Assembly: GCA_028286645.1 (NCBI GenBank)
Contig: JAQBRF010000004.1
Span: 337,536 to 401,535 of the forward strand
Origin: Candidatus Nomurabacteria bacterium
GTDB lineage: Bacteria; Patescibacteriota; Minisyncoccia; Phycocordibacterales; UBA5272
Reading direction: 5' to 3'
Length of the DNA stretch: 64,000 bases
In this document: positions 11,111 through 44,381 of the stretch, piece after piece
Numbering within the stretch: the stretch's first letter is position 1
Layout of the letters: each line of letters begins with the position of its first letter
The notes under the pieces: generated by a model
The model's input: the letters and a program-made list of their open reading frames with translations, nothing else
Databases searched by the model: none
What the model was told of the DNA's origin: nothing
Made by a program: the position numbers and the translations under genes

Positions 11111-11137
11111 TAAAAGAGAGTAAAAATTAAATATTTG

Positions 11138-12825: not shown

Positions 12826-12854
12826 ATACAGATTATAACCTTCTAATGAAGAAA

Positions 12855-13148
12855 TTACCTTCTAAATAATTCCGGGAATCTATTAAAAAGGTCCTTATCT
12901 TCTTCGTCTTTTTTGATTGCTTTAAAAGAAAGTGAGACTAGACTTCCTATAATCTTGGCTTGATCTGGTGTTATATGATTTTTCCTAAGATTATTAATTG
13001 TATCCTCTAGTAAGACTAAGGCGTCTGGCACATTTGTAACTCTTAGGGATTTCAACGGCCGGTAAGTGATTCTCGGTTTAAGAGCCTTTCCACCTTTTAT
13101 AATTGCCTCTCTTTTTAATTCAGCCACCTCGGGATTATGAGTAAACAA
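12855..13148 (-). CDS. hypothetical small protein co-oriented with recombinase
   Basis: 97-aa ORF lying 30 nt upstream of the recombinase. Confidence 0.4.
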   Translation of the reverse strand: MFTHNPEVAELKREAIIKGGKALKPRITYRPLKSLRVTNVPDALVLLEDTINNLRKNHITPDQAKIIGSLVSLSFKAIKKDEEDKDLFNRFPELFRR

Positions 13149-13560
13149 AACTCAAAGTTAATCATTGCGTTGGCATTACATTGTTCGTTATTAGATTTTT
13201 TGAATATACATTTCATAAGTTATTGCTTGTAAATTAGCTTTTAAGATCTGAATAAATTGGTATGATTTGAGGTCATAATCAAACGAAAAACGGACCTGAA
13301 CTTACTTATCCCGTGAGATAGCTTGTTCAGACCCGTGAATCTGTCTAGCTTTTTATAACTAGCTTTGTTTTCCCTGGACCATATCTTAAGGCTTTTTCAA
13401 GATTAGGGTCGATCAGTAAAACTATTTGATTATCTTAAGTGTAGCTTATATTCATATCTTGTAAATTGCTTATATTTCTTACGAGAGAATAATAAGATAT
13501 ACTTGCATTACAACTAAATATATTAGTGGCCTAACCCCTAAGCAATTAGAGTATGGTCCA

Positions 13561-13700
13561 AATCGCGACAAACATAAAAAACCTATCATTAGGGCGTTTG
13601 TCGCGGTATACCGGGAAACTGGTATACAGGCCTTCGGGCCTTCCTAGTGGTAGGCTTTTTCTGTCTCCACTTAGATTTATAAATTAAACGCGACAAACAA
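13561..13700 (+). promoter_or_regulatory. three copies of 'cgcgacaaac' (two direct, one inverted) up to the start codon
   Basis: aatCGCGACAAACat ... gGCGTTTGTCGCGg ... aaaCGCGACAAACaatttATG. A UUCG-tetraloop hairpin (aggccTTCGggcct) lies in the same region. Confidence 0.4.
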
Positions 13701-13703
13701 TTT

Positions 13704-14135
13704 ATGGAAAAGCACGCTTCTCTTATTAAGAAAGTCTCAATATATGTCATTATTGGCTCTATAGCAGTCATAGCCCTAATTATCTCTATAAGTAGTGGAG
13801 AAGGTAGTACTTCAAGTAAAACAGCGACTACAACCTCAACAATAGCCACACGGCCTAAAATTGGAGAGGAAGGATACATTAAAACAACATTGAAATATCC
13901 TTTCTTAGCTGTAGATAGAGAATCCTACGATCAGATAATGAAATCAGCAGTAGCAAAGGACGATCGAGGAATTGCTGAAGTTATAGCCGGTGGGGGAGGT
14001 TTCTTTGTGGACAATGGTACTAAAGTCCTTGTCCTAGACCAAGAGTTTGGATCTAGGAAAGTGCGGGTGCTTGAAGGTGATCAAATTAATAGGACTGGCT
14101 GGTTAGTAATGGAGTGGATCTCAAAGGAGAAATAG
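13704..14135 (+). CDS. hypothetical membrane-anchored protein with Thr-rich linker
   Basis: N-terminal TM helix, TATTTSTIAT linker, GGGGFF motif. Confidence 0.5.
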   Translation: MEKHASLIKKVSIYVIIGSIAVIALIISISSGEGSTSSKTATTTSTIATRPKIGEEGYIKTTLKYPFLAVDRESYDQIMKSAVAKDDRGIAEVIAGGGGFFVDNGTKVLVLDQEFGSRKVRVLEGDQINRTGWLVMEWISKEK

Positions 14136-14171
14136 TCTTCGTAACTTTGTGTTTACTTGCTCGGTCTAGTT

Positions 14172-14948
14172 TTAGATCTTTACGAGAATAAAACCTATTT
14201 TTTCTCTCACGATTCCGTCATACTTACCTTCTACTAAGTTTTCGAATACTGGCCACGGCTCATAATATGTATAGCTAAAGCCATTTGCACCGTGATTAGT
14301 ATTCTGTTTAGTGGTTTCACTTAGATTTGGATACGCCAAAATAAACGCCATTTCTTCAATTACGTACTTAATAGCAATAGGTACTTTGCTGTTAATGTCT
14401 TCTCCTTCTTGGAGGCGATTCTTTAGGACCTTAGCCGTTGTAGTATTTATATCTTTATGAAACTCTAGATTTTCTTCATATAAGGTCATTAGACATTCAT
14501 ACTCTTTTAAATATGTCTCGTCCTTATAAATGTCTACCCAATCTAAGAAAATAACCTTACTCTTATTTTCTGGTTCTTCTATTTTTATTCTCTCTAAAGC
14601 TGCAAGACAATGATTCCTTAATCGATTCCTATCTAATCTTGCTTCTCTTAATACTTTGTCTTCAGAATATCCTTTAGCACGAAAATTATGCTTAGCTGGA
14701 CCGTCGGTAAAGAAAACTGAGACTCTATTTGAGAAGTTGAGTGAAAAACGCAGCATTCTATATATATTTTCTCTATTGTAATATCCATTGTTTAGGCAAA
14801 TTGCTAAAAGTAAATCTTGTTTTCTATTCAGAAACTCCACACCTCTCTTTCTTATAGGTAACCCTTCGTCATTTAGAATAACCACTGCTTGCCAGTTATG
14901 ATTTTCAACTCTCTTATTTAATCCAGCTATTTCATTTTTTAGGTCCAT
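14172..14948 (-). CDS. tRNA-dependent cyclodipeptide synthase (CDPS) homolog
   Basis: LLLAICLNNGYYNRENIYRML aligns gap-free to the CDPS pocket motif (YvmC [21 protein letters not shown]; AlbC GISAGNSYF). RVSVFFTDGPAKHN aligns to SVSVLLAGHEAAN. AIKYVIEEMAFILAYP aligns to the CDPS Y-x-x-x-E motif (AVEYVIAELPFFIGAP). Comparator sequences are from memory. Confidence 0.65.
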   Translation of the reverse strand: MDLKNEIAGLNKRVENHNWQAVVILNDEGLPIRKRGVEFLNRKQDLLLAICLNNGYYNRENIYRMLRFSLNFSNRVSVFFTDGPAKHNFRAKGYSEDKVLREARLDRNRLRNHCLAALERIKIEEPENKSKVIFLDWVDIYKDETYLKEYECLMTLYEENLEFHKDINTTTAKVLKNRLQEGEDINSKVPIAIKYVIEEMAFILAYPNLSETTKQNTNHGANGFSYTYYEPWPVFENLVEGKYDGIVREKIGFILVKI

Positions 14949-14950
14949 AT

Positions 14951-15388
14951 TTATCTTGCCATTACCACTCTTGGTTCTCCGTCCCCAAAGTAATCTTCTT
15001 TTCTCGATTCAATTTTAAATCCTAGAGATTCATAAAGGCTAATTGCTTTAAAGTTATCTGGGTGTGTTACAAGATCTATCCTTTTTACTTCTCCTATTTC
15101 CTTTAAGATATAATCCATAGCTTGCCTTGCTATTCCTTGTCTCTGAAACTCTGGAAGGATTAATATTCCACTTATATAAGCGTGGTCCGGCGATTTCATT
15201 TCATACATTACGTCACCTGCTATCTTACTGTCTTTCTCAATAATATAAACCGGTCCGTCATTTATGGCTTTTATCCATTCGGATTCCTCAAGCATTGCAG
15301 AATAAGTTTTAGATCCTACAATACTTTGCTCTATAGAGATAAGAGTAGGAATATCTTCAATTATTGCTTTTTTATATTTAAGTTCCAT
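14951..15388 (-). CDS. GNAT family N-acetyltransferase
   Basis: Motif A YISGILILPEFQRQGIARQAMDYIL and the AISLYESLGFK tail. 145 aa. Ends 3 nt before the CDPS start. Confidence 0.8.
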   Translation of the reverse strand: MELKYKKAIIEDIPTLISIEQSIVGSKTYSAMLEESEWIKAINDGPVYIIEKDSKIAGDVMYEMKSPDHAYISGILILPEFQRQGIARQAMDYILKEIGEVKRIDLVTHPDNFKAISLYESLGFKIESRKEDYFGDGEPRVVMAR

Positions 15389-15390
15389 AT

Positions 15391-15870
15391 CTAAATTATA
15401 CTCTTATATTTTTTCATAAACTTCTGTCTATCTTGGGGAGTATCAAACCAAAAGATTGTATAGTACTTTTTCTTTCCGCTTCTTATTAATGCTTCGTGTC
15501 TATGGGTGCCGTCTCTTACCGAAAGAATAGGCCAAGGGCGCGGGTTAGCAATTAACGCCGGGACTTCCCACCCTTTTTTTATTTCTTTTACCATAGCATT
15601 CACCCTTTTGTTAAACTTCTTTAAAGATTCTGGATATTCCATTCCTTCTTCTGGGCCACAACAACGCACTAACTCTTTTAAAGGAAAGTTAATTGGCCCC
15701 ACCCAGGAGTGATACCCTTCTTCTTTACGAAGTTTCAGTCCTCTTGCCATATTTTTATTGATTCCTGGACCGTGGAGAAAGGCAAAGACCCATTCGTCTA
15801 GCCTCCCTTTCTTTGTATAGGCTTTGAGTTCTTTGATAGAGAAATCTAACTTTTGTTCTGTTTTTGTCAT
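15391..15870 (-). CDS. ParB/sulfiredoxin-fold domain protein
   Basis: C-terminal ILSVRDGTHRHEALIRSG matches the ParB/Srx DGxHRxxA core. Ends 3 nt before the GNAT start. Confidence 0.45.
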   Translation of the reverse strand: MTKTEQKLDFSIKELKAYTKKGRLDEWVFAFLHGPGINKNMARGLKLRKEEGYHSWVGPINFPLKELVRCCGPEEGMEYPESLKKFNKRVNAMVKEIKKGWEVPALIANPRPWPILSVRDGTHRHEALIRSGKKKYYTIFWFDTPQDRQKFMKKYKSII

Positions 15871-15938
15871 TAAAGAAGTATACCAGTTACGTTTTAACCA
15901 CTTAAAAGGTAATAAATTAAGGGTGTATAATTAGTATT

Positions 15939-16187
15939 ATGACCACTATCAGAGAAGAACGTATTTTAAGGAGAAAGTTCTATGTTTTAGATAAAATTGC
16001 TAAACAGTTGGATCAAGTACCTGGAACGAATATTATATATTACACTCAAGATCCTACAGAGTACTTAATGAACGGCCTCCAATATAATGAGTTAATCCCA
16101 GGACCAGCAGACGAAGTTAAGATTCTAGAACTCTTTAATTCAGAGGATATTCTAAAAATTGAAAGTAATTACGACGAATATGAGTAG
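15939..16187 (+). CDS. small protein, putative antitoxin partner of PIN protein
   Basis: 82 aa. Lies immediately upstream of the PIN gene. A TATAAT sits 9 nt before its ATG. Confidence 0.35.
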   Translation: MTTIREERILRRKFYVLDKIAKQLDQVPGTNIIYYTQDPTEYLMNGLQYNELIPGPADEVKILELFNSEDILKIESNYDEYE

Positions 16188-16246
16188 AAGAGTACTAAGA
16201 TTAAAAATAAATAGAAGTAACTTTGAGTTATTATATAGTGAAATTA

Positions 16247-16788
16247 TGAAGAAGTTGTCCTTCATAGATACTAAAATACGGATTTATATTGATACAAATA
16301 TTTTTGGGAGAGCGATAGACGGTAAAATGGACCAGACAAACACAGAGTCAATTGAACGCATTGTTTCTAAGAAGAATATTAGCCTATATACGTCTGAAAA
16401 AACCAGACAAGAAATTAAAAATAATCCAAACAAGGGCGCGCAATCCTATTTACAATTTATTGTTAATTTAGTTACTGTTATACCGGAAGAACATTTCATA
16501 AAAGAAACCTCTGTAAGTATAGGTGAAGCGACACTAGGTTCTGTAACTATTGGAGGTACAACTACACAAGAGGATAAAACGTTTACACAACTTTCAGTTA
16601 TTTTCCAACAGGATGACGCAGAGCATATATTTCAAGCTATAAAAAGTAACGCACAGTATTTTATTACTCTTGATCAGAAAACGATTATCAACAAAAGAGA
16701 CGAATACAATAAACTTGGTTATCAAACAAGGCTGGTCACCCCTTTAGATCTTGAAAAAATACTATTTGCAATAGAGGATAACAGCTAA
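16247..16788 (+). CDS. PIN-domain protein (VapC-like nuclease with insertion)
   Basis: IYIDTNIFGRAID is a canonical PIN N-terminus. Later acidic residues at DDAEHIFQAI and FITLDQK. Start chosen at MKKLSF. Confidence 0.55.
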
Positions 16789-16792
16789 ATTA

Positions 16793-17338
16793 CTAGTAGG
16801 TTTTTACGTCGTAATCTCCTGTATCTTTATTATATGTAGTATGGATACTTTTTACTTGCTTATTAGAAACTTTTGCCATTATGTTTAAGAACTTTATTAG
16901 GTTAATTGCTATTAAATATTCATTCTTCTTAAAATCAGAGGTGAAATAAAGATAGGTTAGTTTACTCTTACTGTGGATAGTGTGGAATGTGTAAGAATGA
17001 ATAATAAGATTTAAAAGAAGTGACAGCTTTATGCTTATCTTTTCTGGTTTTTTAAAATCAAAAAGTTCTGTAAAATCGAATACCGGACCACGTCTCTTGG
17101 AGTTTCTTCTATGTCTTATTACAGATACCTTTGTATCTATTACTTTATCGGGTATTTTACGTGCTTCTAAGAGTTTTCTAATAGAGAACGTTATGATAAA
17201 AACCTTTATTTCAACTTTAGAAATGATTTCGTCTAGTTTGTCGTCTTCTAAGCTATTAATGTTAATTTTTTGTAACTTCTTTATGTAAGAAATGTCTCTT
17301 TTTATAATTTGCCTCCAATAGTAAGATTCAAAAGCCAT
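16793..17338 (-). CDS. hypothetical protein, very AT-rich
   Basis: 181-aa ORF, Lys/Ile-rich. Confidence 0.4.
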   Translation of the reverse strand: MAFESYYWRQIIKRDISYIKKLQKININSLEDDKLDEIISKVEIKVFIITFSIRKLLEARKIPDKVIDTKVSVIRHRRNSKRRGPVFDFTELFDFKKPEKISIKLSLLLNLIIHSYTFHTIHSKSKLTYLYFTSDFKKNEYLIAINLIKFLNIMAKVSNKQVKSIHTTYNKDTGDYDVKTY

Positions 17339-17965
17339 TTCGTGTCGTATTATATATAACTATAAGTTCAATACATTCACCCCTATTAAATAGTAATTAT
17401 TTCTTCCTGCCCAAAGTAACAATATCGCCATTATTTGCAATGACTTGTTGCTGTGGCTTATTATGTGGTACTTTAGGTAAACCTTGTACGACGTCGGTAA
17501 AATTATCTTTTTTCATATATACTAGAAGTATATCAAAAACGTATAGCCAAACCAGCCTTTTTCCTATCTACGCTTATAAAATCAGACATTATGCTATTCC
17601 AATCTCTAAACTTCTCAACGTTATTTGACACTAAATCAAAAAGTTCAAGTGCTGTATGATAGCGGGCACAGCAAAAAAAACCATAAGGTCTTTTGTTTTG
17701 CTATGCCTAGGAAGTAAGTGGCCTACGCCACTTAAGGAAGGACTTAAAAGTCCGGAGTATTTTTTTGGAAACTCCTAAAAATGACGAGGAGCAATCGGCA
17801 AACTTTTCTAAGCGACGGCGAGAAAAGATTTGTCGGAAAGATTCCTTTCCTAGATACACCAACATTTCTTCCAATAATATGCTAAGCAAATGATTTAGCT
17901 TAACATAAGAACAGCAAGAATTGGACTATAATTTTTTATGAGAAAATATAACTTTAAATCACTCC

Positions 17966-19570: not shown

Positions 19571-20167
19571 CTACTTCTCTTTTCTTCTGCCGATTAAAAA
19601 ATAAAACACGGTACCGATTAATGCCCCTATTGTATCCATAAGCATATCCTTCTGAGCGTCCCAAATATCTCCTTGAGACCCTAGGACTGCAATTCCTGCG
19701 CCAGGATCCGAACTAACTGCATATTGCCATTCAAATATTTCATAAAATGCAGCCACCGCCGGAATAATCATAAAGCCTGCTAAATATGCGAACCATTTTT
19801 TATTTACCCATCTGTACTTAATGGCAGATTCAATAATAGGATACGCATAAAACCCCACCGTTGCATGAGCTACCCTGTCATACATATTTCTTTCGAAACC
19901 GAAAAAATTATCAAACCAATCAAATGGAACAGCGGCAAAAGTATAATGCCCCCCAATGGTGTGCATAAATATAAGGATACTCATTAATAAATATGCAATA
20001 TTTGAAAATCTTATTTTTGCAATATATAAACCTATGATAACCGCAACAATTAGAAGAACTGTTAAATTCTCCACCCACCAAGTATGCCTATCTATCGGAT
20101 GAATCCCCAAGGCGACAAATTCTACTGCATAAATTAGCAAAAGAAGATGCGGGAAATATTTTTTCAT
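19571..20167 (-). CDS. polytopic membrane protein, paralog A
   Basis: About 45-50% identical to ORF 21442-22071, for example YFPHLLLLIY, FDWFDNFFGF and KKWFA. Confidence 0.6.
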   Translation of the reverse strand: MKKYFPHLLLLIYAVEFVALGIHPIDRHTWWVENLTVLLIVAVIIGLYIAKIRFSNIAYLLMSILIFMHTIGGHYTFAAVPFDWFDNFFGFERNMYDRVAHATVGFYAYPIIESAIKYRWVNKKWFAYLAGFMIIPAVAAFYEIFEWQYAVSSDPGAGIAVLGSQGDIWDAQKDMLMDTIGALIGTVFYFLIGRRKEK

Positions 20168-20218: not shown

Positions 20219-20692
20219 TCAAGCCGCATCGCCGCATTGGGCTTTGGCAGCTTCCACTGTTCGCTGAAATTCTTCGCGACTCATGTCATCGCCAACAAGC
20301 CCTGGAGCCCACTCGAACGGCTTAGGGTCAGCCGCTAGGACCGCGTTGAATTCTTCCCTGGTCAGTATCTGGTTGGGAATACTTTCTGACCGTTCGAGTT
20401 CGTTTACCGCTGGATACGCGATGCTGAGCTCGTGGTTCAGAAAAAAATGCATCGAGCTCACCCGTGCCTTTCTCAGCGTCATGAGTTTCCATACATCGGT
20501 GATAAGCTCGAGATCCGGAGTAAGCACTACGTTTCTCGTCCCTTTGAATAAGGCGGGGAAAGTCCCCATGAGCCCATGCTCGAGCTCCAGGAAGTAGACC
20601 ACCGTAGGCACGAACCCTGCCACTTTGCCGTCCTGCAATTCTTTCAGTGTTGCTGGAACTTTACTTCTGAGATCATCGTTTCGTATGCCCAT
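20219..20692 (-). CDS. GC-rich hypothetical protein
   Basis: GGAGGAAAA RBS before the ATG (MGIRNDDL). The ORF-track start at 20767 lies upstream of the RBS. Confidence 0.5.
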   Translation of the reverse strand: MGIRNDDLRSKVPATLKELQDGKVAGFVPTVVYFLELEHGLMGTFPALFKGTRNVVLTPDLELITDVWKLMTLRKARVSSMHFFLNHELSIAYPAVNELERSESIPNQILTREEFNAVLAADPKPFEWAPGLVGDDMSREEFQRTVEAAKAQCGDAA

Positions 20693-20848
20693 TTTTCCTC
20701 CGCACGTAACGTCTCGGGAGATATCCTGAGACCGTTTGATGCGGACGAATCTGCTCCATCTAACCATTTTAAGTATTTTTAGTCAATCTATTGATATGGG
20801 TGATACTCCGACAAATCTTTTCACTCAATTAAAAATAGATTTTTAATT

Positions 20849-21238: not shown

Positions 21239-21320
21239 GTGCCCAGGGCGAGACTCGAACTCGCACGCGCTACGCGCTGAGGATTTTAAGTCCTCTATGT
21301 CTACCATTCCATCACCCGGG
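21239..21320 (-). tRNA. tRNA-Leu (anticodon TAA)
   Basis: Revcomp GCCCGGGTGATGGAATGGTAGACATAGAGGACTTAAAATCCTC... with a long variable arm. Anticodon loop CUUAAAA. Confidence 0.85.
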
Positions 21321-21325
21321 CAGGT

Positions 21326-21480
21326 TAATGTAAAACTATTCTAGCACATTCACATTAGTATGTTCAGTACGTCTTCACTTGCGTTCAGTTGCACATTCGC
21401 GCTGCTGCGCTCAGTATTTACTCTATCGCGTCCTTCGCTTGTTAGCTACGGACATCTTCGCAGCCAAGCTGCTCCAACAT
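21326..21480. repeat. right copy of long-range inverted repeat (inverted relative to 7021-7242)
   Basis: The revcomp contains agcagcttggctgcgaagat...agctaac...tactgagc...gcgaatgtg...tactgaacatactaatgtgaatgtgc. Confidence 0.7.
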
Positions 21481-22071
21481 ATTTTTCCTATAAACTGACA
21501 AATAAATAATAACACCTAAAATTCCTCCTAGGAAATCCATTAACATATCTTTTGGCGTATCCCAGAAGTCCCCTTGTGAACCCATAAACCCAGCACTAGC
21601 TACTGGGTCAACATTTATTGCGTTAATCCATTCATATATTTCATAAAATGCAGCGATGGCTGTTATAAACATGACGGCAGTAAAACAAGCAAACCACTTT
21701 TTATTTACCGCCTTAAATCTAATTAATACTTCTGTCATTGGATATGCAAGCAGTCCGATTAAAAAGTGTCCCACTCGATCATAGTTATTTCTATGGAAAC
21801 CAAATAAATTATTAAACCAATTAAAGGGCACATTTTCAAACATATAGTGTGCTCCCACTTGGTGCATGTAAAAAAGCCCGAAAATTATTAAATACGAAAT
21901 GTTTGAAAGACGAACATTTTTGATATAAAAAATAATAACAACAAGCACTAGAGGCAGCACGACTGAATTTTCTATAAACCAGACCTCTCTATTTGTAGGA
22001 TTAATCGCAAGCAAAATAAACTCGATTATATATATTAAAAGTAACAGATGGGGAAAGTATTTTTTAAACAT
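21442..22071 (-). CDS. polytopic membrane protein, paralog B
   Basis: Paralog of 19571-20167. Its C-terminal codons lie inside the inverted-repeat copy. Confidence 0.6.
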   Translation of the reverse strand: MFKKYFPHLLLLIYIIEFILLAINPTNREVWFIENSVVLPLVLVVIIFYIKNVRLSNISYLIIFGLFYMHQVGAHYMFENVPFNWFNNLFGFHRNNYDRVGHFLIGLLAYPMTEVLIRFKAVNKKWFACFTAVMFITAIAAFYEIYEWINAINVDPVASAGFMGSQGDFWDTPKDMLMDFLGGILGVIIYLSVYRKNMLEQLGCEDVRS

Positions 22072-22778: not shown

Positions 22779-22852
22779 GGTGCAGTGGCGAAGTGGCCTA
22801 ACGCTGCGGTTTGCAAAACCGCCATTCGCGGGTTCGACTCCCGCCTGCACCT
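22779..22852 (+). tRNA. tRNA-Cys (anticodon GCA)
   Basis: GGTGCAG acceptor pairs with CTGCACC. Anticodon stem-loop GCGGT-TTGCAAA-ACCGC. Discriminator U73, as typical for tRNA-Cys. Confidence 0.85.
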
Positions 22853-23030
22853 CTAAATTACAAAGTAATTTGCAGGAGAAAGCAAACTGCTTTGCTTTCG
22901 GGAGTCGAAAGGCGGAGCGTTATTTATTCTGCTGAATAAATAACGTTCCGCGGCCAGCGAAAAAGTTTTCTGTCGAGAAGACTTTATTTGTCGGAGACAT
23001 TCCCGCCCATACCTCTAAATTCTAATATCC
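22853..23030 (+). mobile_element. family E miniature element + diverged duplicate of tRNA-Cys 3' end
   Basis: Body holds 'tcgaaaggcggagcgttatttattc' and a 16-bp hairpin. 'cattcccgcccatacctctaaatt' at 22999-23030 mirrors tRNA-Cys 3' 'actcccgcctgcacctctaaatt'. Confidence 0.6.
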
Positions 23031-23072: not shown

Positions 23073-23113
23073 AATACGTAAAGCTACATCCACATTCCCC
23101 TACAGAGGGTACG

Positions 23114-23557
23114 ATGAACAAACTGTTCGCAAGTATCGTAATTACATTCTGCCTGGCAGCCTGCCAGAGCATCCCACAAACCACCACCCCGGCACAAAAA
23201 ACCGTGCCGACCATGATCACCACAACCAAAGTCCTGGACCTTCTGGACAAGGACGAGGTGGTGATAGTCGACGTACGGCCGAAGCAAGACCGGAAAACCT
23301 TTCCGTCCGCCTACGGGATTCACTATCTTCAATTCGGTCCGACTCAATGGACCGGAAAGATATCCGGAAGGGATGAGGAAAACTTCCTTCGCGCAATCTA
23401 CCCCATCTACGCGGAGGCGGAGGAGGCGGGGAAAATGATCGTCTTGATGTGCGACGAAGGTGTGCGAGCGCGTGTCGCTGCACAGCTGCTTCACAATCAG
23501 GACATGGACGTGTTCTACGCGTCCGATGCCAACATGATTACGCTCATGTACCGCTAA
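23114..23557 (+). CDS. rhodanese-domain lipoprotein (GC-rich)
   Basis: Signal peptide with lipobox LAAC. Rhodanese active-site loop LMCDEGVRARVAA (CxxGxR). Confidence 0.6.
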   Translation: MNKLFASIVITFCLAACQSIPQTTTPAQKTVPTMITTTKVLDLLDKDEVVIVDVRPKQDRKTFPSAYGIHYLQFGPTQWTGKISGRDEENFLRAIYPIYAEAEEAGKMIVLMCDEGVRARVAAQLLHNQDMDVFYASDANMITLMYR

Positions 23558-23587
23558 AAAGCGATCATGAGAATACAAAGGGCCATG

Positions 23588-23624: not shown

Positions 23625-23704
23625 GATAAGTCAATTGCGTTTTATTTTTCAATGTGACAGTATTGTGGGGACCGCTCTATCACAATTCTTTTCGGGAGAC
23701 TACA

Positions 23705-24781
23705 ATGTCTTTTCGCAAACCCACTAAAGCTCAGATGTCCCTACTTAGCGCTACAGTAGGATTCTCTTCGTATCTCATTCCTGCGTACCTAAGTTTCAGT
23801 GGTCCATATAAATGGTGGATGATGTTAGCAGTCTTTTTCAGCTGCTGCGTCTACTATTTCATAGACCTACCATATCCCATAGAAGTGCGCTATTTCAACA
23901 AACCGGTGGGAAATTATTACGATGAGGGTTTTGTTCTGTTCTTTACAATTCCTTTTATTGACTTCCTCTTACGGTTATCCTATCCATATGGAATATGGAT
24001 AGATAGACCAAAAGGAAAAGAGAGGCCAGAAGATATCTACAGAAGGGAGGCTCGAGTTCGAATTAACAAGGACGATTCGAACGTGCGTATCCTCGCACCA
24101 ATCAGAAACTTTACAAAGAGGGATGCGCTCGTAATTAGCATCATAAGGTATTTTTGGGAGCTTTTGTTCACCGGGCCGGAAATATATAAATTCAAAAGGG
24201 TTGGCCGACTCCTACTTTTACTTAGCTTCCTCGGCGGCTTTGGAGCCACTAAGTTCGCCTCAGAACCAGTAGCCGCTCCTCTCCCGCTTCCGAATCCTAC
24301 GAATAATTCTTCTTCCCCGGAGGTGCCTCCGCTACTAGATGTCCAATTTTCCACCACTTCGTCGGAAGTGGTGGAACTAAACGCGCCACTCGCAAGCGAG
24401 CCACCAAACGCCTTGACGGAAACTCAACCGGTAACTCAAGGTATACCCGCAATTCCACAGTCCGCTGCGCCCTCTCTCGGGCCTCAACTCGCGCAAATCG
24501 ATTACTCCCCAAGTGACGAGATACGTGTGTGGAATGAAAATGAATGCGCTCGCATTCCTCCAGACACAGTGTTCGCGTTCAAAATGAACACATGGCCTAA
24601 GCGAGCTGCCAACATGCGTCAAGCATTGAGCTACGCCGACATTCGCAATGGTCAAGGCGGAGAGCCCTCCTACAATACCATCCCCTGGCAAGATGTCGGG
24701 TCATACTGGAACGCCATCGACCCAAATTATCCTCTGCGCTGGGAATCCTACCCTGGTCGCGTGGGGTATGTCTGCTTTTAG
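23705..24781 (+). CDS. hypothetical polytopic membrane protein with Pro/Ser-rich linker and C-terminal domain
   Basis: GGGAGA RBS before MSFRKPTKAQ. Several TM helices. Moderately GC-rich. Confidence 0.5.
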   Translation: MSFRKPTKAQMSLLSATVGFSSYLIPAYLSFSGPYKWWMMLAVFFSCCVYYFIDLPYPIEVRYFNKPVGNYYDEGFVLFFTIPFIDFLLRLSYPYGIWIDRPKGKERPEDIYRREARVRINKDDSNVRILAPIRNFTKRDALVISIIRYFWELLFTGPEIYKFKRVGRLLLLLSFLGGFGATKFASEPVAAPLPLPNPTNNSSSPEVPPLLDVQFSTTSSEVVELNAPLASEPPNALTETQPVTQGIPAIPQSAAPSLGPQLAQIDYSPSDEIRVWNENECARIPPDTVFAFKMNTWPKRAANMRQALSYADIRNGQGGEPSYNTIPWQDVGSYWNAIDPNYPLRWESYPGRVGYVCF

Positions 24782-25831: not shown

Positions 25832-28051
25832 ATGAAACTACTCATAGTAGAAAGTCCATCAAAAGCGAAAACAATCTCTAAATATTTAGACGGCGCATAC
25901 GAAGTGCGTGCGTCTGTTGGACATGTGCGAGATCTTCCCAAGAGCAATAAAAAAGCTCTGGACATTGAAGGCGGCTTCGTTCCACACTACGAAGTCTCTC
26001 CGGGGAAAGAAAAAGTAATAGCCGAAATTAAATCCCTCGCAAAGAGATCAAACGAAGTAATACTCGCAACCGACCCCGATCGCGAAGGAGAAGCTATAGC
26101 GTGGCACATAAGAGAGGCTTGTAAATTAGACGGATCTAAGCGCGTAACATTTAACGAAATTACTCCGGAGGCTATTAAAGAAGCACTTAAACATCCTCGA
26201 GAAATCGATATGAATTTAAAGGAGGCGCAAGAAGCGCGAAGAGTGCTTGATCGATTGGTTGGATATGACCTATCCGGAATTATTTGGAAGAAAGTTAGAT
26301 ACGGACTTTCTGCTGGACGAGTGCAGTCTCCAGCGCTTCGCATTATCATGGAAAGAGAAAGAGAAATCCGCGCGTTTAATCCAGTTACTTATTATGTAAT
26401 AGCCGGTGAATTTATAACGGTCGGAAAAATGAAGGAGAGCAAGACATATACATTAATTTTAGAATGCGAAGAGCAGCCGAAAGTTAAGGGAGAAGCTGAT
26501 CGAATAGTAAAAGAAGGAAAGAACGGAACATGGGAAGTAGTAGGAGTTGAGAGCACGGAAGTATCTCGCTCCCCTCGCGCGCCTTTCACTACTTCGACTC
26601 TTCAGCAGACCGCATCGTCTCGCCTCGGGTTTGCTCCTAAGCGCACGATGATGATCGCACAAAAACTATATGAAAAAGGATTAATCACATACATGCGTAC
26701 TGACAGCACGACTCTTTCTGCTGTTGCGGTTAATGAAATTAAAAGTACGATCGAAAAAACATATGGAGGAGAGTTAGTAGAAATTAGACAATACAAAACT
26801 AAATCAAAAAATGCTCAGGAAGCCCACGAAGCAATAAGACCCACTCATGCAAGCTCGAGATCAGGCGGAAGCACAGACGATGAAAAAAGACTCTATTCAT
26901 TAATCTGGGAAAGAACAGTTGCCAGCCAAATGAAGGATGCGAAACTTAAGAGAAGCAAAGTCACTGCAAACATTCATACCAAAAGCATCCCTGACTTTTC
27001 CGTAACAGGATCAATTGTTGTGTCTCCCGGATGGCTGCTTGCAGATCCTAATGCTCGCGGAGATGATGTGATACTACCCGCGCTTAATAAAGGAGACCCG
27101 CTTAACTTAAAAGCCCTTCAAGCGATTGAAAAAGCAACAGAACCGCCGAACAGATATACCGAAGCTGGGCTTATTAAAGAGCTAGAAAAAAGAGGCATCG
27201 GACGACCTTCAACATACGCGTCTATCATTTCTACTATTGAAGACCGTGGGTATGTTGATAAATTAAACAAAGCCCTTCACCCGACAGATACCGGCGAAGT
27301 GGTTATTTCATTTTTAGAAGAGCATTTTACTAATTATATTTCTGATACGTTCACCGCTGAAATGGAAGACAAGCTTGATGATATAGCAGAAGGCAAAACA
27401 ACATACTTAAAAATATTAACTGATTTTTATAAACCATTCTTAAAAGATGTTAAATCAAAAGAAAAATTAGAGAAGGCTACAAACATGGGAGATGCTCCAG
27501 TTGATATTAAATGCCCTCTTTGTGAAAGTCCTATGGTTATTAAGCTTGCAAAAAATGGAAAGTTTTATTCATGTGCAAGGTTCCCGGATTGTATGGGCGC
27601 GAGAAAGTTAGATGGCTCTGTTATGGAAGGACCGAAGATGCTTGGAAAGGTTTGTCCTAAGTGTGAAAAGGGAGAATTAATGGAACGTGAAGGACGTTAT
27701 GGAAAGTTTATTGCATGTTCTAATTATCCAAAGTGTAAATATATTGAGCAAGACGAAGAATTAAGAAAAGCAAATTCTACTGGAGTATCGTGCAATAAAT
27801 GTAAAGATGGATATATGGAAGAAAGAAAAGGCCGGTTTGGTATATTTTATTCCTGTTCAAATTATCCTGATTGCAAACATATTATAAAAACACGGCCCAC
27901 GGGTAACAGATGTACATATAAAAAAGATGATGGAACAGAATGCGGCGAACTCATGATGGAAGGGACAAAAACGATTCCCGAGCGATGCAGTGATAAGACC
28001 TGCCCCAATCATAACCCTCACAAACTAGAGCAAGATAAAACTAAAAAATAA
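25832..28051 (+). CDS. topA: DNA topoisomerase I with C-terminal C4 zinc ribbons
   Basis: TOPRIM MKLLIVESPSKAK...ATDPDREGE. Topo IA core. Four CxxC...CxxC ribbons. Confidence 0.9.
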   Translation: MKLLIVESPSKAKTISKYLDGAYEVRASVGHVRDLPKSNKKALDIEGGFVPHYEVSPGKEKVIAEIKSLAKRSNEVILATDPDREGEAIAWHIREACKLDGSKRVTFNEITPEAIKEALKHPREIDMNLKEAQEARRVLDRLVGYDLSGIIWKKVRYGLSAGRVQSPALRIIMEREREIRAFNPVTYYVIAGEFITVGKMKESKTYTLILECEEQPKVKGEADRIVKEGKNGTWEVVGVESTEVSRSPRAPFTTSTLQQTASSRLGFAPKRTMMIAQKLYEKGLITYMRTDSTTLSAVAVNEIKSTIEKTYGGELVEIRQYKTKSKNAQEAHEAIRPTHASSRSGGSTDDEKRLYSLIWERTVASQMKDAKLKRSKVTANIHTKSIPDFSVTGSIVVSPGWLLADPNARGDDVILPALNKGDPLNLKALQAIEKATEPPNRYTEAGLIKELEKRGIGRPSTYASIISTIEDRGYVDKLNKALHPTDTGEVVISFLEEHFTNYISDTFTAEMEDKLDDIAEGKTTYLKILTDFYKPFLKDVKSKEKLEKATNMGDAPVDIKCPLCESPMVIKLAKNGKFYSCARFPDCMGARKLDGSVMEGPKMLGKVCPKCEKGELMEREGRYGKFIACSNYPKCKYIEQDEELRKANSTGVSCNKCKDGYMEERKGRFGIFYSCSNYPDCKHIIKTRPTGNRCTYKKDDGTECGELMMEGTKTIPERCSDKTCPNHNPHKLEQDKTKK

Positions 28052-28290
28052 TAGCTCGGGAAAGCGACCAACCTGCTTTGGTTGCGTTCGTTTTTGTCGG
28101 GCGGAGCGTTATGAGGTGAGCACGCCGAATTGCGAGCCGAGGGTGATTAGCAAATCATGCCGTGAGGCCAAAGCGAACTTTTTGAGTGGCTACGAAAAAA
28201 GATTTGTAGTCAAAGACCATACCTGAACGATGTAGCGACAAAATCTGTCCGAATCACAATCCACACAAGTTAGAAATAGTAAAGAAATAA
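28052..28290 (+). mobile_element. family E miniature element + diverged duplicate of topA 3' end
   Basis: Body holds 'gtcgggcggagcgttatgagg'. 28205-28290, ending '...tgtccgaatcacaatccacacaagttagaaatagtaaagaaataa', mirrors the last ~75 nt of topA and its stop codon. Confidence 0.6.
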
Positions 28291-28439
28291 GAGAGGAATT
28301 AGTGAGTACTTGACAAAGTTAATACCAATGGTTAGTGTACTAGCAGGACAGCATGTGCTGCCTCCCTTGCTCCGGGAATGGAGTTGGAAGGAGAAGTACC
28401 TTGGATAATACCACCCCGCTTTATGCCATCCCTTTTGAG

Positions 28440-29066
28440 ATGGTTGCTCTAAAGAGCAAGTTCGAAACCCTGCGCTACGGCGTGGAGAGTCTCGGATTGG
28501 GAACTATCGATATCCGAATGGCTCATTACAACACAGATGCCAGGGCGGATGAAGATAACATGGCCGACTGGATGTTGATAGTCTGCTCCGACGCTCGCGG
28601 GGAAGAGATTGCGGTAATGTACTTTCTTACCCAACTTTATCCCGACGAAGATCGCAATGAGACGTACGCATCGGTGGATGCTCATCAACTCCGATTCGAG
28701 AAGCTCTTCGCGAAACCTCATCAGCTTAGTTGGGATGAGGCCTATAAGCGTATAAAGCGCGCGTATGGCTGGCTTGCAAAGGATAAGGACCCTCGATTCG
28801 CTAATTTTCCTGAACCTCAATATATGGTGGTAACGCACCTTAGTTTTGGATTCGGTGAAAAAATGCTGAGTAATTGCGAAGGCCCCTACCAAAAAGAGCT
28901 CGCCGATATACGCTTAAAAGATTTGCAGAGCGAGTATAAGCGCTTTGCTGATCTTACAGCTTCGGCGGAAGGGAAGGATACCCCGATGATGAATTTCGTC
29001 GCGGAGGTAATCCCAATCTCTTTACCGCAAAAGCTTGCGCTATTAGCTGTCGAAAAGTCGACATAA
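28440..29066 (+). CDS. GC-rich hypothetical protein
   Basis: ORF in the GC-rich segment. Start uncertain between 28353 and 28440. Confidence 0.4.
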   Translation: MVALKSKFETLRYGVESLGLGTIDIRMAHYNTDARADEDNMADWMLIVCSDARGEEIAVMYFLTQLYPDEDRNETYASVDAHQLRFEKLFAKPHQLSWDEAYKRIKRAYGWLAKDKDPRFANFPEPQYMVVTHLSFGFGEKMLSNCEGPYQKELADIRLKDLQSEYKRFADLTASAEGKDTPMMNFVAEVIPISLPQKLALLAVEKST

Positions 29067-32671: not shown

Positions 32672-33253
32672 ATGCTTGAATATAAAATATTTTTTGCACT
32701 TGTTGCGTCCGCATTCGAAATCATTGCCAACTTTCCGTATATTCTGGACATACTTGCAAGAAAAACCACTCCTCATTTTTTTACATGGCTTATTTGGACC
32801 CTGCTCACATGGATTAGTTTTTTTATTCTTGTTTCGGAAGGGGCAGGCACGGGGGCTTTGGTAACCGGAGTGACTGCAGTTACATGTTTAGGAATACTTA
32901 CTCTGTCATTATTTTATGGAGCAAGGAAAATAACAACATCTGATTGGATATGCCTTATTCTTGCTTTTTTTGCTCTAGCCCTATGGAAAATTACTAATAA
33001 TGGATTTTTAGCAATAATTATAATTGTTATTGTTGACACCCTTGGCTTTATACCTACTTTTAGAAAGTCATTCCTAGAACCATATAAGGAAACCTTATCT
33101 ACTTATCTTCTTGTAACCTGTAAACACCTTCTCACATTATTTGCACTTCAGATGTACACACCCACAACCATTCTTTACCCAGCTATTCTTTTCTTAACAA
33201 ATTTTTTATTTGTTATTATGCTTATCATAAGACGAAAGAAAATTGTTGTTTAG
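32672..33253 (+). CDS. hypothetical polytopic membrane protein
   Basis: 193 aa with 5-6 predicted TM helices. Confidence 0.5.
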   Translation: MLEYKIFFALVASAFEIIANFPYILDILARKTTPHFFTWLIWTLLTWISFFILVSEGAGTGALVTGVTAVTCLGILTLSLFYGARKITTSDWICLILAFFALALWKITNNGFLAIIIIVIVDTLGFIPTFRKSFLEPYKETLSTYLLVTCKHLLTLFALQMYTPTTILYPAILFLTNFLFVIMLIIRRKKIVV

Positions 33254-33618
33254 GTGCCGGAGGAGAGACTGGTCACGAAATCAGCTCCTCACTTCGTTTG
33301 TCACAGATGATTTCTCGACCCCTATTCAAGTCTCCGCAAGCCAAGCAGTTGGCTTGCTCTCAATTCCAATATAGTGAATTAAAAAACAAGAGAAAAACTC
33401 TTGTTTTTTAATTCATGTGCCGGAGGAGAGACTTGGCTACAAGTTTTCTCTCGTCGCCACTCAAGAAACTCGCAGCCCACCCCTCGTGGTTTTGCTTGCT
33501 AACAAAACATCACTGCGGCCCTTCAAGTTCTCACGTAAAACGCGCAGGCGCTTTACTCTCCTTGTACAGTGTTTAAATAAAAATACCGAGACGAGCTCGG
33601 TATTTTTATTTAAACATG
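33254..33618 (-). mobile_element. array of miniature elements (family F + family E) with reiterated tRNA-Leu(CAA) 3'-end fragments
   Basis: Fragments 'gtgccggaggagagact' at 33254-33272 and 33417-33436 copy the tRNA 3' end at 33619-33637. Family F body with 'tctccgcaagccaagcagttggcttgct' and hairpin 33375-33416. Family E body 33437-33569. 21-bp hairpin 33570-33616. Confidence 0.6.
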
Positions 33619-33699
33619 TGCCGGAGGAGAGACTTGAACTCTCACACCTTTCGATACACGATTTTGAGTCGTGCGCGTCTACCATTCCGCCACTCCGGC
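33619..33699 (-). tRNA. tRNA-Leu (anticodon CAA)
   Basis: Revcomp GCCGGAGTGGCGGAATGGTAGACGCGCACGACTCAAAATCGTG... with a long variable arm. Anticodon loop CUCAAAA. Confidence 0.85.
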
Positions 33700-33845
33700 A
33701 AGTTTAATTATTCTAGCACGACTAATATTAATTTTTTTAAATAATCCTTACATCTATTGACTTTCCTTACAAATATGATATAGTTAAGCTAAATGGGCAC
33801 CTGCTCATTGTAATGCTTTACAACGGCTCAAGGAGGCCAATAAAC

Positions 33846-34979
33846 ATGACCACCAACATTCCTGCTCCCTCGGGCGCTTTCGTGGGATCGATCGATCGTT
33901 CCGGTTCTCGCGCGGGCGAAGAAAAGGCCATGGTCCTGGCATGGAACGCATTCATGGCGAACATGAAAAAAGACCCGCTGGGCCAAAACATGCGCGGCCG
34001 CATATCGATGTGGGACAATATGGGCACCGACATCCTCCGTCAAGGAGTTTTCTCGGAGATCAAACCGCTCACAAACGGCGAGATCGAAGCCCGGGCGCTC
34101 ACTCCGCTTTACGACAACGTAATGTTCGCGATTCAGATCCTCGACGAGATGGAAGGCGCTCGAAAAGCGCTCGTCATCGACACCGACGGTCTGGAGAACT
34201 ACTCTCAAAAGTGGAAGGATGTCGCTCCAGTCCGGGCGGAAATCGAAAAACGTCGCGAGCAAGGCTGGCTCGTCATCTACCTCGCGAAGAATATAGACGC
34301 GTGGAAGGTGGCGGAGGAGCTCGGCATCCCGAAAGAAAACGCGATGAACTACCGCAATACCGGCGCCGCGGCGCCGCATAGCGGAGGCTTACTGAGCCGT
34401 TTTCGTAACCATGTGGCAGAACACCCCATGGGCTACGCGCTCGGCGCGACTGCTGCGCTCGTCGGCGCTTACATGCTGCTCCGTCCGGGGCAATCGCATG
34501 GCGCACTCGGCTTCACTGATTCGGATCGCAATAACGCGATGGGCGTAGACGGCGTCAGCCAAACCTGGCAGAACGCAGTGGCAGACGATGCGAGCGGGTT
34601 CAGAGAGCCGATCAACCACTTCATGGACCTGCCAACGAATCTACAGGAAGCGTACGTCGGGCTCCCTGAAGATTTCGACCCGCTCCTCGGCTCGATGAAC
34701 GAAGACGGAACTCAGCCGGGTCTCCTCGATCCGAATGAAGATGTCCTCGATGCAACGGATGCCGAAAGCTTGGCTAACGGTGAATATGCCGAGGCTGGTC
34801 AAGGTGAATCCAACGCGACCGAGGACACACCGAGACAAGGAAACGTGTCGGGAAATGATCGCGAAGAACAAGGGGCCGACGCGGACCCTGACCCACTTCC
34901 CGAGGAATCGAACGACTCGGTGAGTATTGACGCAGACTACGGCGGCGGTGGTGGTGGTGGAGACATCGGGGGCGACTGA
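33846..34979 (+). CDS. GC-rich hypothetical protein with acidic tail ending in poly-Gly
   Basis: AGGAGG RBS 9 nt before the ATG (MTTNIPAPSG). C-terminal DADYGGGGGGGDIGGD. Confidence 0.55.
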   Translation: MTTNIPAPSGAFVGSIDRSGSRAGEEKAMVLAWNAFMANMKKDPLGQNMRGRISMWDNMGTDILRQGVFSEIKPLTNGEIEARALTPLYDNVMFAIQILDEMEGARKALVIDTDGLENYSQKWKDVAPVRAEIEKRREQGWLVIYLAKNIDAWKVAEELGIPKENAMNYRNTGAAAPHSGGLLSRFRNHVAEHPMGYALGATAALVGAYMLLRPGQSHGALGFTDSDRNNAMGVDGVSQTWQNAVADDASGFREPINHFMDLPTNLQEAYVGLPEDFDPLLGSMNEDGTQPGLLDPNEDVLDATDAESLANGEYAEAGQGESNATEDTPRQGNVSGNDREEQGADADPDPLPEESNDSVSIDADYGGGGGGGDIGGD

Positions 34980-38303: not shown

Positions 38304-39008
38304 TTACAGACCGGATTTCAACTTGATATCCGGTGAACCATCGAGAATTGCGGAAGTGTGAATCATTTCCTGGTCGCGGATCAACCTGGCAAGACGGTTA
38401 ACAGTCTTCCATCCGAGCTCTTTTTGTACGTCCCGCTCTCTGATCTCTGCGGCCACCATCCGTCGGCAATTCTTTCTTTCCGGATAGAACCACAACCGGG
38501 CGAAACGAGCGTTTGCTAGCAGGGTTGTTGATTTTGTGGCCTTTTCATCCTTCAGAACTTCCCAGCCGAGGGTGATAGCCACTTGGCGATGCCCTCCGAA
38601 CGGATTCAAAAGGTGCCGTCGCAAATACACCGCCATCAGCACCTCCTTATCATCCGGAGTAAGAAGCCTACGAGCCGGCGCTTGCATGGCAACCTGCGAA
38701 AGTCGGCTCATTTCCTTGAAGCGTTCGATGGCCTTCGGTACATAGCTCAGTTGCCGCTTCGCAATAAGCTTGATCGAATGATTCATCGCCGCGTAAAGGG
38801 TGCTGATATACGTCATCTGCGCCCGAGCCCATTGCTCACGAAGCAGTCCTTCTCTTTCTTGGGTCCGTGCGGGCCGCAGACTGAATGCAACGTACTGCGT
38901 GTTTGCGTATTCGTAGAGTCTACGATGTTGAAGTACTACACCTTTCGACCCGAAGTACAAACCTTGCCAGTGCGGTGCATCATCTTGATGTAACGGATCT
39001 TGCGGCAT
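38304..39008 (-). CDS. GC-rich hypothetical protein
   Basis: AGGGGGAAAC precedes the ATG at 39008 (MPQDPLHQ). No recognised motif. Confidence 0.45.
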   Translation of the reverse strand: MPQDPLHQDDAPHWQGLYFGSKGVVLQHRRLYEYANTQYVAFSLRPARTQEREGLLREQWARAQMTYISTLYAAMNHSIKLIAKRQLSYVPKAIERFKEMSRLSQVAMQAPARRLLTPDDKEVLMAVYLRRHLLNPFGGHRQVAITLGWEVLKDEKATKSTTLLANARFARLWFYPERKNCRRMVAAEIRERDVQKELGWKTVNRLARLIRDQEMIHTSAILDGSPDIKLKSGL

Positions 39009-39141
39009 GTTTCCCCCTATTACAATTAATCGGTATATACCGTACTCATATAGTATATAATATATATGCGCTTCTGTCAATATGATATATCCTAAAAAAT
39101 CCTTTAAATATCTGGTATAATCCAATTATAAGTTTAAAAAC

Positions 39142-44283: not shown

Positions 44284-44329
44284 TGCGAGTACTCCATTGA
44301 ACGTATCATTATTACCCTATCATGCTTTT

Positions 44330-44358
44330 CTTAAAGAAAAAAGCCGCGCGAGCGCGGC
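44330..44358 (-). terminator. rho-independent terminator
   Basis: Minus strand GCCGCGC...GCGCGGC followed by TTTTTTCTTT. Confidence 0.6.
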
Positions 44359-44381
44359 CACTTATACGTTGGAGCTTCCAT

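Follow-up and report, generated by a model that had tools for sequence, protein, structure and literature searches.

R1, a folded sequence family at the 3' ends of topA and tRNA genes in Nomurabacteria, and its possible role as an integrative mini-element

We analyzed a 64-kb stretch of a Candidatus Nomurabacteria genome (contig JAQBRF010000004.1; the whole stretch is referred to here as the window) in which the gene for DNA topoisomerase I, topA, is followed by a short body and then by a second, diverged copy of its own 3' end. We assign the body to a folded family not catalogued before, named R1 here, which is common in Paceibacteria/Nomurabacteria. We consider it probable (roughly 60%) that positions 27967 to 28211 constitute a non-autonomous Campbell-type integrative mini-element that supplies a new 3' end to its target gene and displaces the old one, with base pairing probably helping in targeting. 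This reading draws on the anatomy of the unit, the family and its targets, the presence and absence of the unit among relatives, a strand-specific fold, and an antisense copy of the target site (the anti-target) whose complementarity is accompanied by covariation.

The duplicated 3' end of topA

The target gene, topA (739 aa; 25832 to 28051, plus strand), is intact and in frame in the list of open reading frames (ORFs) of the window. An identical TopA product carries the Pfam domains Toprim, Topoisom_bac, and Zn_ribbon_Top1, and homologues across 80 Patescibacteria loci are 60 to 87% identical, the closest (82 to 87%) being proteins from metagenome-assembled genomes; a neighboring ORF is on record solely from a Candidatus Nomurabacteria genome of this kind. 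The live end of the gene (copy 1; 27967 to 28051, plus strand) extends from the last base of a Thr codon through KTIPERC...KK*, and this end is conserved in the element-bearing gene. It is followed by a GC-richer body (160 nt) and then by an in-frame pseudo-copy of the last ~26 codons (copy 2; 28212 to 28290, plus strand), the frame of which is open from 28210, after a TAG at 28207 to 28209, and closes with a TAA at 28288 to 28290. Copy 2 reads (S)KTIPERCSDKICPNHNPHKLEIVKK in frame, and the live gene reads KTIPERCSDKTCPNHNPHKLEQDKTKK. A preliminary description of this region, made from the letters and an ORF list, had reported a duplication of the last ~75 nt of topA. The strings that it quoted all occur where it placed them, and the duplication is real, but it starts at 28212, 15 nt upstream of the ~28227 given there.

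The two copies share 70% DNA identity over 66 nt and differ in 2 of 22 residues. Given that 16 of their 20 mismatches fall on third codon positions and that so few residues differ, both copies have evolved as working TopA ends. On both strands of the window, a match of at least 12 of the 22 residues was found only at copy 1 and copy 2, and the tblastn match of the duplicate had an E value of 6.6e-11. The duplication is thus neither a chance resemblance nor a recent local event.

For comparison, we used 80 related Paceibacteria/Nomurabacteria loci that were retrieved by TopA similarity. A C-terminal pseudo-copy was present 124 to 154 nt past the topA stop in 12 of them, always starting with (P/S)KTIPERC and running to a stop codon, and a thirteenth locus (L048) had an R1 body with a decayed copy; at another (L076), three units stand in tandem at topA. 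The preliminary description had named, as the result that would speak against an element, relatives with the same topA C-terminus and with neither a nearby duplicate nor the core; instead, 13 of the 80 loci carry both the body and a pseudo-copy. The comparison of C-termini that it had proposed revealed occupied as well as empty sites. Gene order is kept (dprA-topA-[variable]-relA-parB), and the topA-relA spacer measures ~90 to 100 nt at two empty sites (L005 and L009) versus 1146 nt in the window. Because both states exist, we regard the topA 3' flank as an insertion hotspot. The insertions also seem to be of different ages, given that the two copies are 95 to 100% identical at four loci (L004, L016, L029, and L034) and differ by ~30% at synonymous sites in the window. 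Bodies of only 39 nt occupy the topA site in L006 (4912 to 4950) and L007 (8209 to 8247), where an anti-target, AGTCCC (versus GGGACT), and a hairpin, ending in ..GGACC in L007, adjoin a second full GTKTIPERC... copy; their sequences suggest that they represent a minimal module. At the topA site of L008 (~8206 to 8290), we also observed a hairpin followed by a decayed ..PNHNPHKLDKK remnant.

The tails of the copies bear on which one travels. Relatives without the element, as well as all second copies within the close clade, end in E-x-KK* (EIKK*, EIVKK*, EVKK*, or EPKK*), and copy 2 of the window, with its tail EIVKK*, resembles them. The live ends of element-bearing topA genes are heterogeneous (EQDKTKK*, EGEKIKK*, VTK*, and QAK*). 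On the basis of these tail motifs, which differ by copy, and of an anti-target that matches copy 1 (see below), copy 1 would be the element-borne end and copy 2 the former end of the host gene. The preliminary description had left it as an alternative whether the element supplies or displaces the C terminus; the evidence favors both, with the direction read from the tails and the anti-target.

The R1 family and its antisense segment

At topA, the R1 covariance model matches positions 28059 to 28212 (92.4 bits; E = 1.9e-21). Three hairpins, numbered hp1 to hp3 in the 5'-to-3' direction, organize the body. The first, hp1 (28064 to 28085, plus strand; GCGACCAA-CCTGCT-TTGGTTGC), splits the anti-target; its covarying stem has nine pairs, seven of them with compensatory changes, and its loop motif CTGC is nearly invariant across the family. 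The folded core (28099 to 28211, plus strand) consists of GGCGGAGCG, hp2, CGAGCCG.GG, an extra insertion specific to the window, hp3, and a 3' end, ..TTTGTAGTC. Fourteen topA-linked bodies could be aligned, all with the layout hp1, GTGAGGCGGAGCG, hp2, CGAGCCGGGGTCGCGA, hp3, and TTGTGACC directly before the copy; hp2 is variable, and hp3 is both long and variable. RNAalifold predicted 38 pairs for these 14 bodies, 26 with compensatory changes, and 40 pairs (31 with compensatory changes) after the addition of four tRNA-linked bodies from the window. One G.U pair was invariant in 15 of 15 sequences, which assigns the fold to the sense strand. Folded alone, the 261-nt region was not significant (z = -1.0 and -0.45); the fold became clear from the comparative data and from the addition of the upstream target (z = -3.2).

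A covariance model built from the alignment of topA- and tRNA-linked bodies found R1 7 times in the window and 53 times in the 80 relatives. Directly upstream of 54 of the 58 best matches lies a same-strand tRNA gene (37 matches) or topA (17 matches). Eight tRNA species serve as targets (Leu-caa, Leu-taa, Leu-tag, Cys, Lys, Trp, Tyr, and Glu), and many related genomes carry R1 at the same tRNA, e.g., tRNA-Cys or tRNA-Leu(caa). The four unanchored matches include one unit split off by an island (described below) and two at locus edges. Part of the target's 3' end is directly repeated after each unit, clearly so in 34 members, and arrays of two or three units are common. Sizes are uniform (~90 to 160 nt; ~120 to 240 bp for whole units). 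The preliminary description had assigned the body to a "family E" on the basis of a repeated 21-mer; this string, gtcgggcggagcgttatgagg (28096 to 28116), occurs only once in the window even when up to three mismatches are allowed, and it is the covariance model that gives the family its seven members there. Its broader proposals, namely that an element family sits at the topA 3' end, where the gene end is duplicated, and that a protein-coding gene is the target of a family otherwise found at tRNA genes, were borne out by the repeats and by the distribution of the best matches. The window had no Rfam 15 match at the gathering threshold, three family members gave nothing credible at E <= 10, and our literature searches found no description of such elements.

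All targets share the motif C|RA at the crossover. At tRNA genes, the repeat begins inside the T-loop, with ..GGTTC|RAGTC.. in the real gene and ..GTGACC|RAGTC.. or ..GTAGCC|RAGTC.. at the downstream copy. At topA, it begins at ..GG(C/G)AC|RAARAC.., and ..GTGACC|RAAGAC.. precedes the copy; in the window, the boundary is ..GGGAC|AAAAAC, after 27966. Judged by its sequence, the topA site is therefore T-loop-like (GG..C|RA.; GGNAC|RAARAC compared with GGTTC|RAGTC), and through this likeness a family that targets tRNA genes could plausibly have gained a protein-coding target. The idea of sequence mimicry in the preliminary description thus holds in spirit and is extended here by the sense 3' copy, the antisense site copy, and the T-loop-like site in topA.

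The target site in topA (27964 to 27983, plus strand; GACAAAAACGATTCCCGAGC) covers the codons G-T-K-T-I-P-E-R and spans the left edge of the repeat. The left part of the anti-target, GCTCGGGAA (28054 to 28062, plus strand), is the reverse complement of 27975 to 27983, and the right part, TCGTTTTTGTC (28088 to 28098, plus strand), is that of 27964 to 27974, extending 3 nt leftward past the repeat boundary. Together (11 + 9 nt), they form the reverse complement of topA 27964 to 27983, with hp1 as a branch; an anti-target before as well as after hp1 is seen in a subset of elements only. The 9-nt perfect complement of the left part had a p value of 0.000 against 400 random windows, and the anti-target has 11 nt complementary to copy 1 versus at most 5 nt complementary to copy 2. 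The predicted minimum-energy fold pairs 27964 to 27983 with 28054 to 28098 (z = -3.2 with RNA and -2.65 with DNA parameters).

Comparable segments occur across the family, e.g., at topA in L050 (anti-target GTATAGTCTTTGTC; target GACAAAGACTATAC) and L076 (anti-target GATGGTTTTTGTG; target CACAAAAACCATC), at tRNA-Leu (anti-target GAGAGACTTGAA; target TTCAAGTCTCTC), and at tRNA-Cys of the window (anti-target GGGAGTCGAA, the reverse complement of T-arm TTCGACTCCC). Between an element and its own target, the longest perfect complement had a median of 8 nt; random windows taken from the same locus gave 3.7 nt, and 18 of 34 elements reached p <= 0.01. The complement to the live target was longer than that to copy 2 in 23 of the 34 elements and shorter in 1. 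Pairing continues for 2 to 3 nt beyond the left edge of the repeat (GAC/GTC, CAC/GTG, and TTC/GAA; TCC/GGA at tRNA-Trp in L031). In the 14 topA elements, which come from different genomes, the anti-target tracks synonymous variation in the live codons Gly-Thr-Lys-Thr-Ile: 83% of the cells were paired, versus at most 50% with the partner slid by one to three columns, and 19 double changes were counted, versus 7.5 +/- 2.1 in shuffles (0 of 500 reached 19). In tandem arrays, the outer units keep anti-targets that match the intact tRNA T-loop (e.g., the second unit of L021) and not the adjoining hybrid site. We also considered the anti-target as a tRNA primer-binding site, i.e., as a match to the mature tRNA 3' end plus CCA; this idea was rejected, with one suggestive case, no generality, and no applicability to topA.

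The core and the target are not tightly coupled. The nearest core relative of an R1 member was at a different target in 31 of 55 cases, and core identity reached 77 to 81% among Leu-taa, Leu-caa, and Leu-tag and 84% between Cys and Lys. This suggests that specificity travels with swappable sequence and not with one integrase per target; a dedicated integrase for each of nine targets is unlikely in a small genome. Two possibilities are that one recombinase reads the C|RA core while selection enforces cognate pairing and that the antisense and homology segments of the element direct the recombinase.

A proposed integration mechanism and its alternatives

In our reading, an R1 unit comprises four parts, namely a sense copy of the 3' part of the target from the crossover on (at topA, the last ~27 codons and the stop), an antisense copy of the target site split by hp1, the conserved multi-helix core, and a hairpin ending in ..GTGACC or ..GTAGTC that abuts the crossover. 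Integration would be of the Campbell type and always at one point of the target (the C|RA of tRNA T-loops or GGNAC|RAARAC in topA), the unit's own copy becoming the working gene 3' end (copy 1) and the original end being pushed downstream as a dead copy (copy 2; 28212 to 28290); repeated integrations would yield tandem arrays. The anti-target may pair with the sense strand of an unoccupied site, as RNA or as folded single-stranded DNA, and so select or verify the target, while a recombinase encoded elsewhere in the genome would perform the chemistry. The expected empty site would read GGGAC|AAAGACCATACC..., with the left flank of topA joined to copy 2 (...GAAGGGAC|AAAGACCATACCTGAACG), and the expected circle, or attP, junction would read ...TTTGTAGTC|AAAAACGATTCC..., with the excised junction ...GATTTGTAGTC|AAAAACGATTCCCGAGCG.

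Several observations weigh against this mini-element interpretation. No recombinase gene was found beside ~40 R1 arrays, where the recurrent proteins are syntenic housekeeping genes only, and the only recombinase among the window ORFs scanned belongs to an independent serine-recombinase island. Neither an excised-circle junction nor an empty-site allele from the same species was recovered, and an exact-protein lookup returned the same arrangement only. The comparisons of 60-nt identity and of post-stop flanks are both saturated and do not resolve which copy is ancestral. Units 1 and 2 of L076 are identical, which points to unequal crossing-over and not to separate integration. The Gly-codon position to the left of the boundary has two states only, which follow the host clades, so its covariation may reflect one or two events. 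In addition, hp1 and the T-run that follows it scored as an intrinsic terminator in a terminator scan, and tRNA-linked units start with a terminator, so the core may be poorly transcribed; since terminators may limit its transcription, the RNA version of the guide idea is weakened.

A stronger form of the mini-element interpretation, which we advance tentatively and at well below even odds, is that R1 is a self-addressed guide module (RNA or folded single-stranded DNA) that would lead one trans-acting recombinase to any matching T-loop-like site. In an unoccupied gene, the two parts of the anti-target would pair on either side of the crossover, the GGTC segment would pair with the element's own end, and the recombinase would insert a ~200-nt unit carrying the matching antisense segment and the replacement 3' end. 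A rather unlikely alternative keeps the same mini-element but leaves the choice of target to protein alone, with one recombinase recognizing T-loop-like cores and the antisense segment acting after integration, in the transcript. The antisense segment and the gene end would then form a long 3' stem and, with hp1 and the T-run, a terminator or 3'-end stabilizer for topA or tRNA transcripts. The terminator score of hp1 is in line with this proposal, as is the finding that the anti-target pairs best with the integrated attL form, i.e., the live gene; moreover, C|RA is shared across targets, so that one protein could recognize all of them, and coevolution of the anti-target with live synonymous sites fits ongoing selection on a cis structure. 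However, tRNA-linked units have a separate terminator between the tRNA and the anti-target, which would leave the pairing partner in another transcript; tRNA folding would face competition from pairing with the 3' 23 nt of the tRNA; and the anti-targets of outer tandem units match the intact T-loop and not the hybrid site next to them.

Bacterial tRNA genes often have remnants of att sites standing in tandem, and the R1 bodies could likewise be scars, i.e., remnants of attL-attR deletions in larger integrase-bearing prophages or islands, with R1 as a conserved att-flanking arm. The cargo-bearing island at tRNA-Leu(tag) in the window and the GC-rich orphan ORFs that flank several arrays (e.g., 28353 to 29066 and 20219 to 20767) agree with such an origin, which we nevertheless judge improbable. 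Cargo was found between a member's own repeats in 0 of 58 members (~1.4 Mb); the island uses an acceptor-stem crossover and only came between an older R1 unit and its tRNA; among 44 recombinase-locus regions, R1 was found only as separate tRNA-adjacent mini-elements in three; and the uniform size of ~90 to 160 nt, together with strong structural selection, argues for a functional unit. Two pattern scans recovered viral contigs that contained no true R1 member, and a third scan gave no matches. It is very improbable that nothing here is mobile and that a vertically inherited host noncoding RNA gene or 3' untranslated region element was captured, or arose, when the topA end was duplicated locally in tandem. 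A conserved structured core could have a cellular role, and many related genomes do carry R1 at the same tRNA, but only some relatives have the element at topA, one and the same body is found at nine unrelated targets, always with a target-specific repeat and antisense segment, tandem arrays form, and the divergence of the copies varies by locus, from ~30% at synonymous sites to 95 to 100% identity, as expected of different ages. Finally, diversity-generating retroelements are common in bacteria of the Candidate Phyla Radiation (CPR), and their layout, with a repeat of a gene 3' end just downstream, is superficially similar (copy 2 as the template repeat and copy 1 as the variable repeat). The substitution pattern excludes this reading, which has practically no weight left: the mismatches are not adenine-specific (A in copy 2 in 6 of 20 and in copy 1 in 3 of 20), and the protein is conserved and not diversified (20 of 22 residues identical; 16 of 20 mismatches at third positions). 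No reverse transcriptase was found among the ~50 window ORFs scanned, and the same family also targets tRNA genes.

Among known systems, P4-type integrators of tRNA and tmRNA genes, the streptococcal elements ICESt1 and ICESt3 (at the fda 3' end), and cis-mobilizable elements (CIMEs), which are integrase-less derivatives of integrative elements that rebuild gene 3' ends, resemble R1 in that the insert lies between direct repeats taken from the 3' part of the target, the gene is kept intact, in the case of R1 with an end that the element would supply, and tandem accretion and non-autonomous copies occur. The T-loop, where the R1 crossover lies, is also a classic sublocation for tRNA integrators. 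Unlike these elements, R1 units are only ~120 to 240 bp long with no cognate integrase nearby, one core family serves at least nine targets, and the units carry an antisense site copy and a conserved multi-helix fold. The CTX-phage attP(+) site (used by XerCD) and the integron attC site (used by IntI) share with R1 the conservation of a one-strand structure rather than sequence, two inverted site copies ~60 to 150 nt apart that can fold, in R1 by prediction, into a target-mimicking duplex, and small cassettes without a recombinase gene. They differ in that R1 targets tRNA T-loops and topA and not dif or attI, its fold is a branched junction with conserved G.U pairs and is thus more RNA-like, and its repeat extends to the end of the gene. 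The R1 site and anti-target pair in both RNA and DNA energy models, and the fold is strand specific.

The bridge (seek) RNAs of IS110/IS1111, the pairing between exon- and intron-binding sites (EBS/IBS) of group II introns, and the 4-nt guides of IS608 likewise use target-complementary segments that span the crossover; as in R1 (GGTC in the hp3 stem, with GACC), a separate segment pairs with the element's own end, and specificity can be changed by sequence. In contrast to these systems, R1 has no associated DEDD, TnpA, or reverse transcriptase gene and no Rfam or covariance-model similarity; all of its guide-like segments pair with the same strand, and it carries a long sense copy of the target 3' end. 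No IS110-family transposase domain was present among the ORFs scanned, no recombinase gene was adjacent, and no Rfam match was found; similarly, the window ORFs scanned had no tnpA/tnpB-type Pfam domains, and there was no Rfam match at E <= 10 of the IS200/IS605 type. Bacterial miniature inverted-repeat transposable elements (MITEs; Correia, ERIC, RUP, and BOX) are, like R1, small, structured, noncoding, and present in many copies, and R1 would share their mobilization in trans. Unlike them, R1 has no family-wide terminal inverted repeats or short target-site duplications (its direct repeats are 18 to 85 nt of the target gene), its insertion is strictly site and orientation specific at gene 3' ends, and each copy has the sequence of its own local target as its inverted repeat.

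If the mini-element interpretation is true, the small genomes of CPR bacteria carry dozens of ~200-bp mobile units with their own antisense address, and insertion into essential genes is harmless, as the unit brings the gene end that it replaces. An essential protein-coding gene would join the range of a tRNA-targeting family through T-loop mimicry, and there would be an explanation, helpful for annotation, for the unusual 3' flanks and variable C-terminal tails seen with topA and tRNA genes in these genomes. R1 would also be a new structured nucleic acid family absent from Rfam, with ~60 examples for modeling, and a tractable candidate for a new nucleic acid-guided recombination system once the partner enzyme is found. 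Should the guide-module form hold, it would amount to natural, programmable, and scar-free gene-end swapping in CPR bacteria, a functional analogue of bridge RNAs with no detected relation in sequence or structure.

Other R1 members and neighboring features

The remaining R1 members of the window are accompanied by copies of tRNA 3' ends. One (22873 to 22996, plus strand) follows tRNA-Cys (22779 to 22853) and precedes a partial copy of the tRNA 3' end. Two in tandem on the minus strand (21186 to 21065 and 21006 to 20880) are 3' of tRNA-Leu(taa) (21239 to 21321), each being followed by a copy of the tRNA 3' end. Two more on the minus strand (33561 to 33434 and 33362 to 33270) are 3' of tRNA-Leu(caa) (33618 to 33699), with 3'-end copies at 33404 to 33435 and 33241 to 33272. 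The last (17709 to 17838, plus strand), which has a decayed tRNA-Leu(tag) 3'-end copy, is separated from this tRNA (11137 to 11220). Its segment, consisting of ..GGGCACA, a terminator, and R1 (17665 to 17862), is homologous to an R1 unit located directly 3' of tRNA-Leu(tag) in L005 (840 to 1035). From this homology, the unit appears to have been parted from its tRNA by a later 6.4-kb serine-recombinase island (11200 to 17664), at the far end of which it now stands.

The island encodes a large serine recombinase (541 aa; 11200 to 12825, minus strand) with Resolvase and Recombinase domains, the last seven codons of which overlap the 3' end of tRNA-Leu(tag). The island junction shares only GGGCAC with the tRNA, which places its crossover in the acceptor stem. 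We considered this recombinase as the R1 integrase and rejected it on the grounds of the acceptor-stem crossover and of the R1 unit being older and homologous to that of L005. At ~30 of 44 metagenome loci, related recombinases directly adjoin a tRNA (Leu, Val, Arg, Pro, or Gln) or tmRNA gene at its 3' end, in convergent orientation; they look like a serine integrase family that targets tRNA 3' ends. R1 matches were present at 3 of the 44 loci, all in separate units next to tRNA genes. Within the 10 kb covered, none of the 44 showed a far-end tRNA copy with an R1 body before it. Inside the island, a LOOT RNA (Rfam RF03000; 65 bits; 13528 to 13642, plus strand) lies between the recombinase gene and genes for a cyclodipeptide synthase-like protein and a GNAT protein.

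The window also contains GC-rich ORFs (0.46 to 0.60 versus ~0.35 to 0.40 for the genome) without Pfam or NCBIfam matches, several of them just beyond R1 arrays (28353 to 29066, 23654 to 24781, 33813 to 34979, 9918 to 10742, 20219 to 20767, 23084 to 23578, 38304 to 39125, 43813 to 44885, and 6010 to 6727). The first of these, orf237, lies between the topA element and relA; it had no Pfam or NCBIfam match, matched only itself among 5.8 billion proteins, and was not found in the 80 related loci. It is not part of the R1 unit. Another repeat family has copies at 6990 to 7240 (plus strand) and 21325 to 21500 (minus strand) that are ~72 to 81% identical and contain internal GCGAATGTG subrepeats; the second copy is immediately 5' of tRNA-Leu(taa). 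This tRNA, its R1 array, and a GC-rich orphan ORF are bracketed by two DUF2238 membrane protein paralogues (19571 to 20167 and 21442 to 22071, both minus strand), which share an 82-nt stretch with 78% identity.

Two observations concern tRNA-Pro in other loci. On the reverse strand of L139, in the interval between tRNA-Pro (11855 to 11926) and a recombinase gene ending at 11575, a 129-nt insert without an R1 model match lies between the tRNA and a perfect 18-nt copy of its 3' end, which suggests further families of T-loop mini-elements beyond the sampled Paceibacteria. In L164 (11772 to 11879, minus strand), a weak R1-like match (36.6 bits) is located immediately 5', and not 3', of an intact tRNA-Pro.

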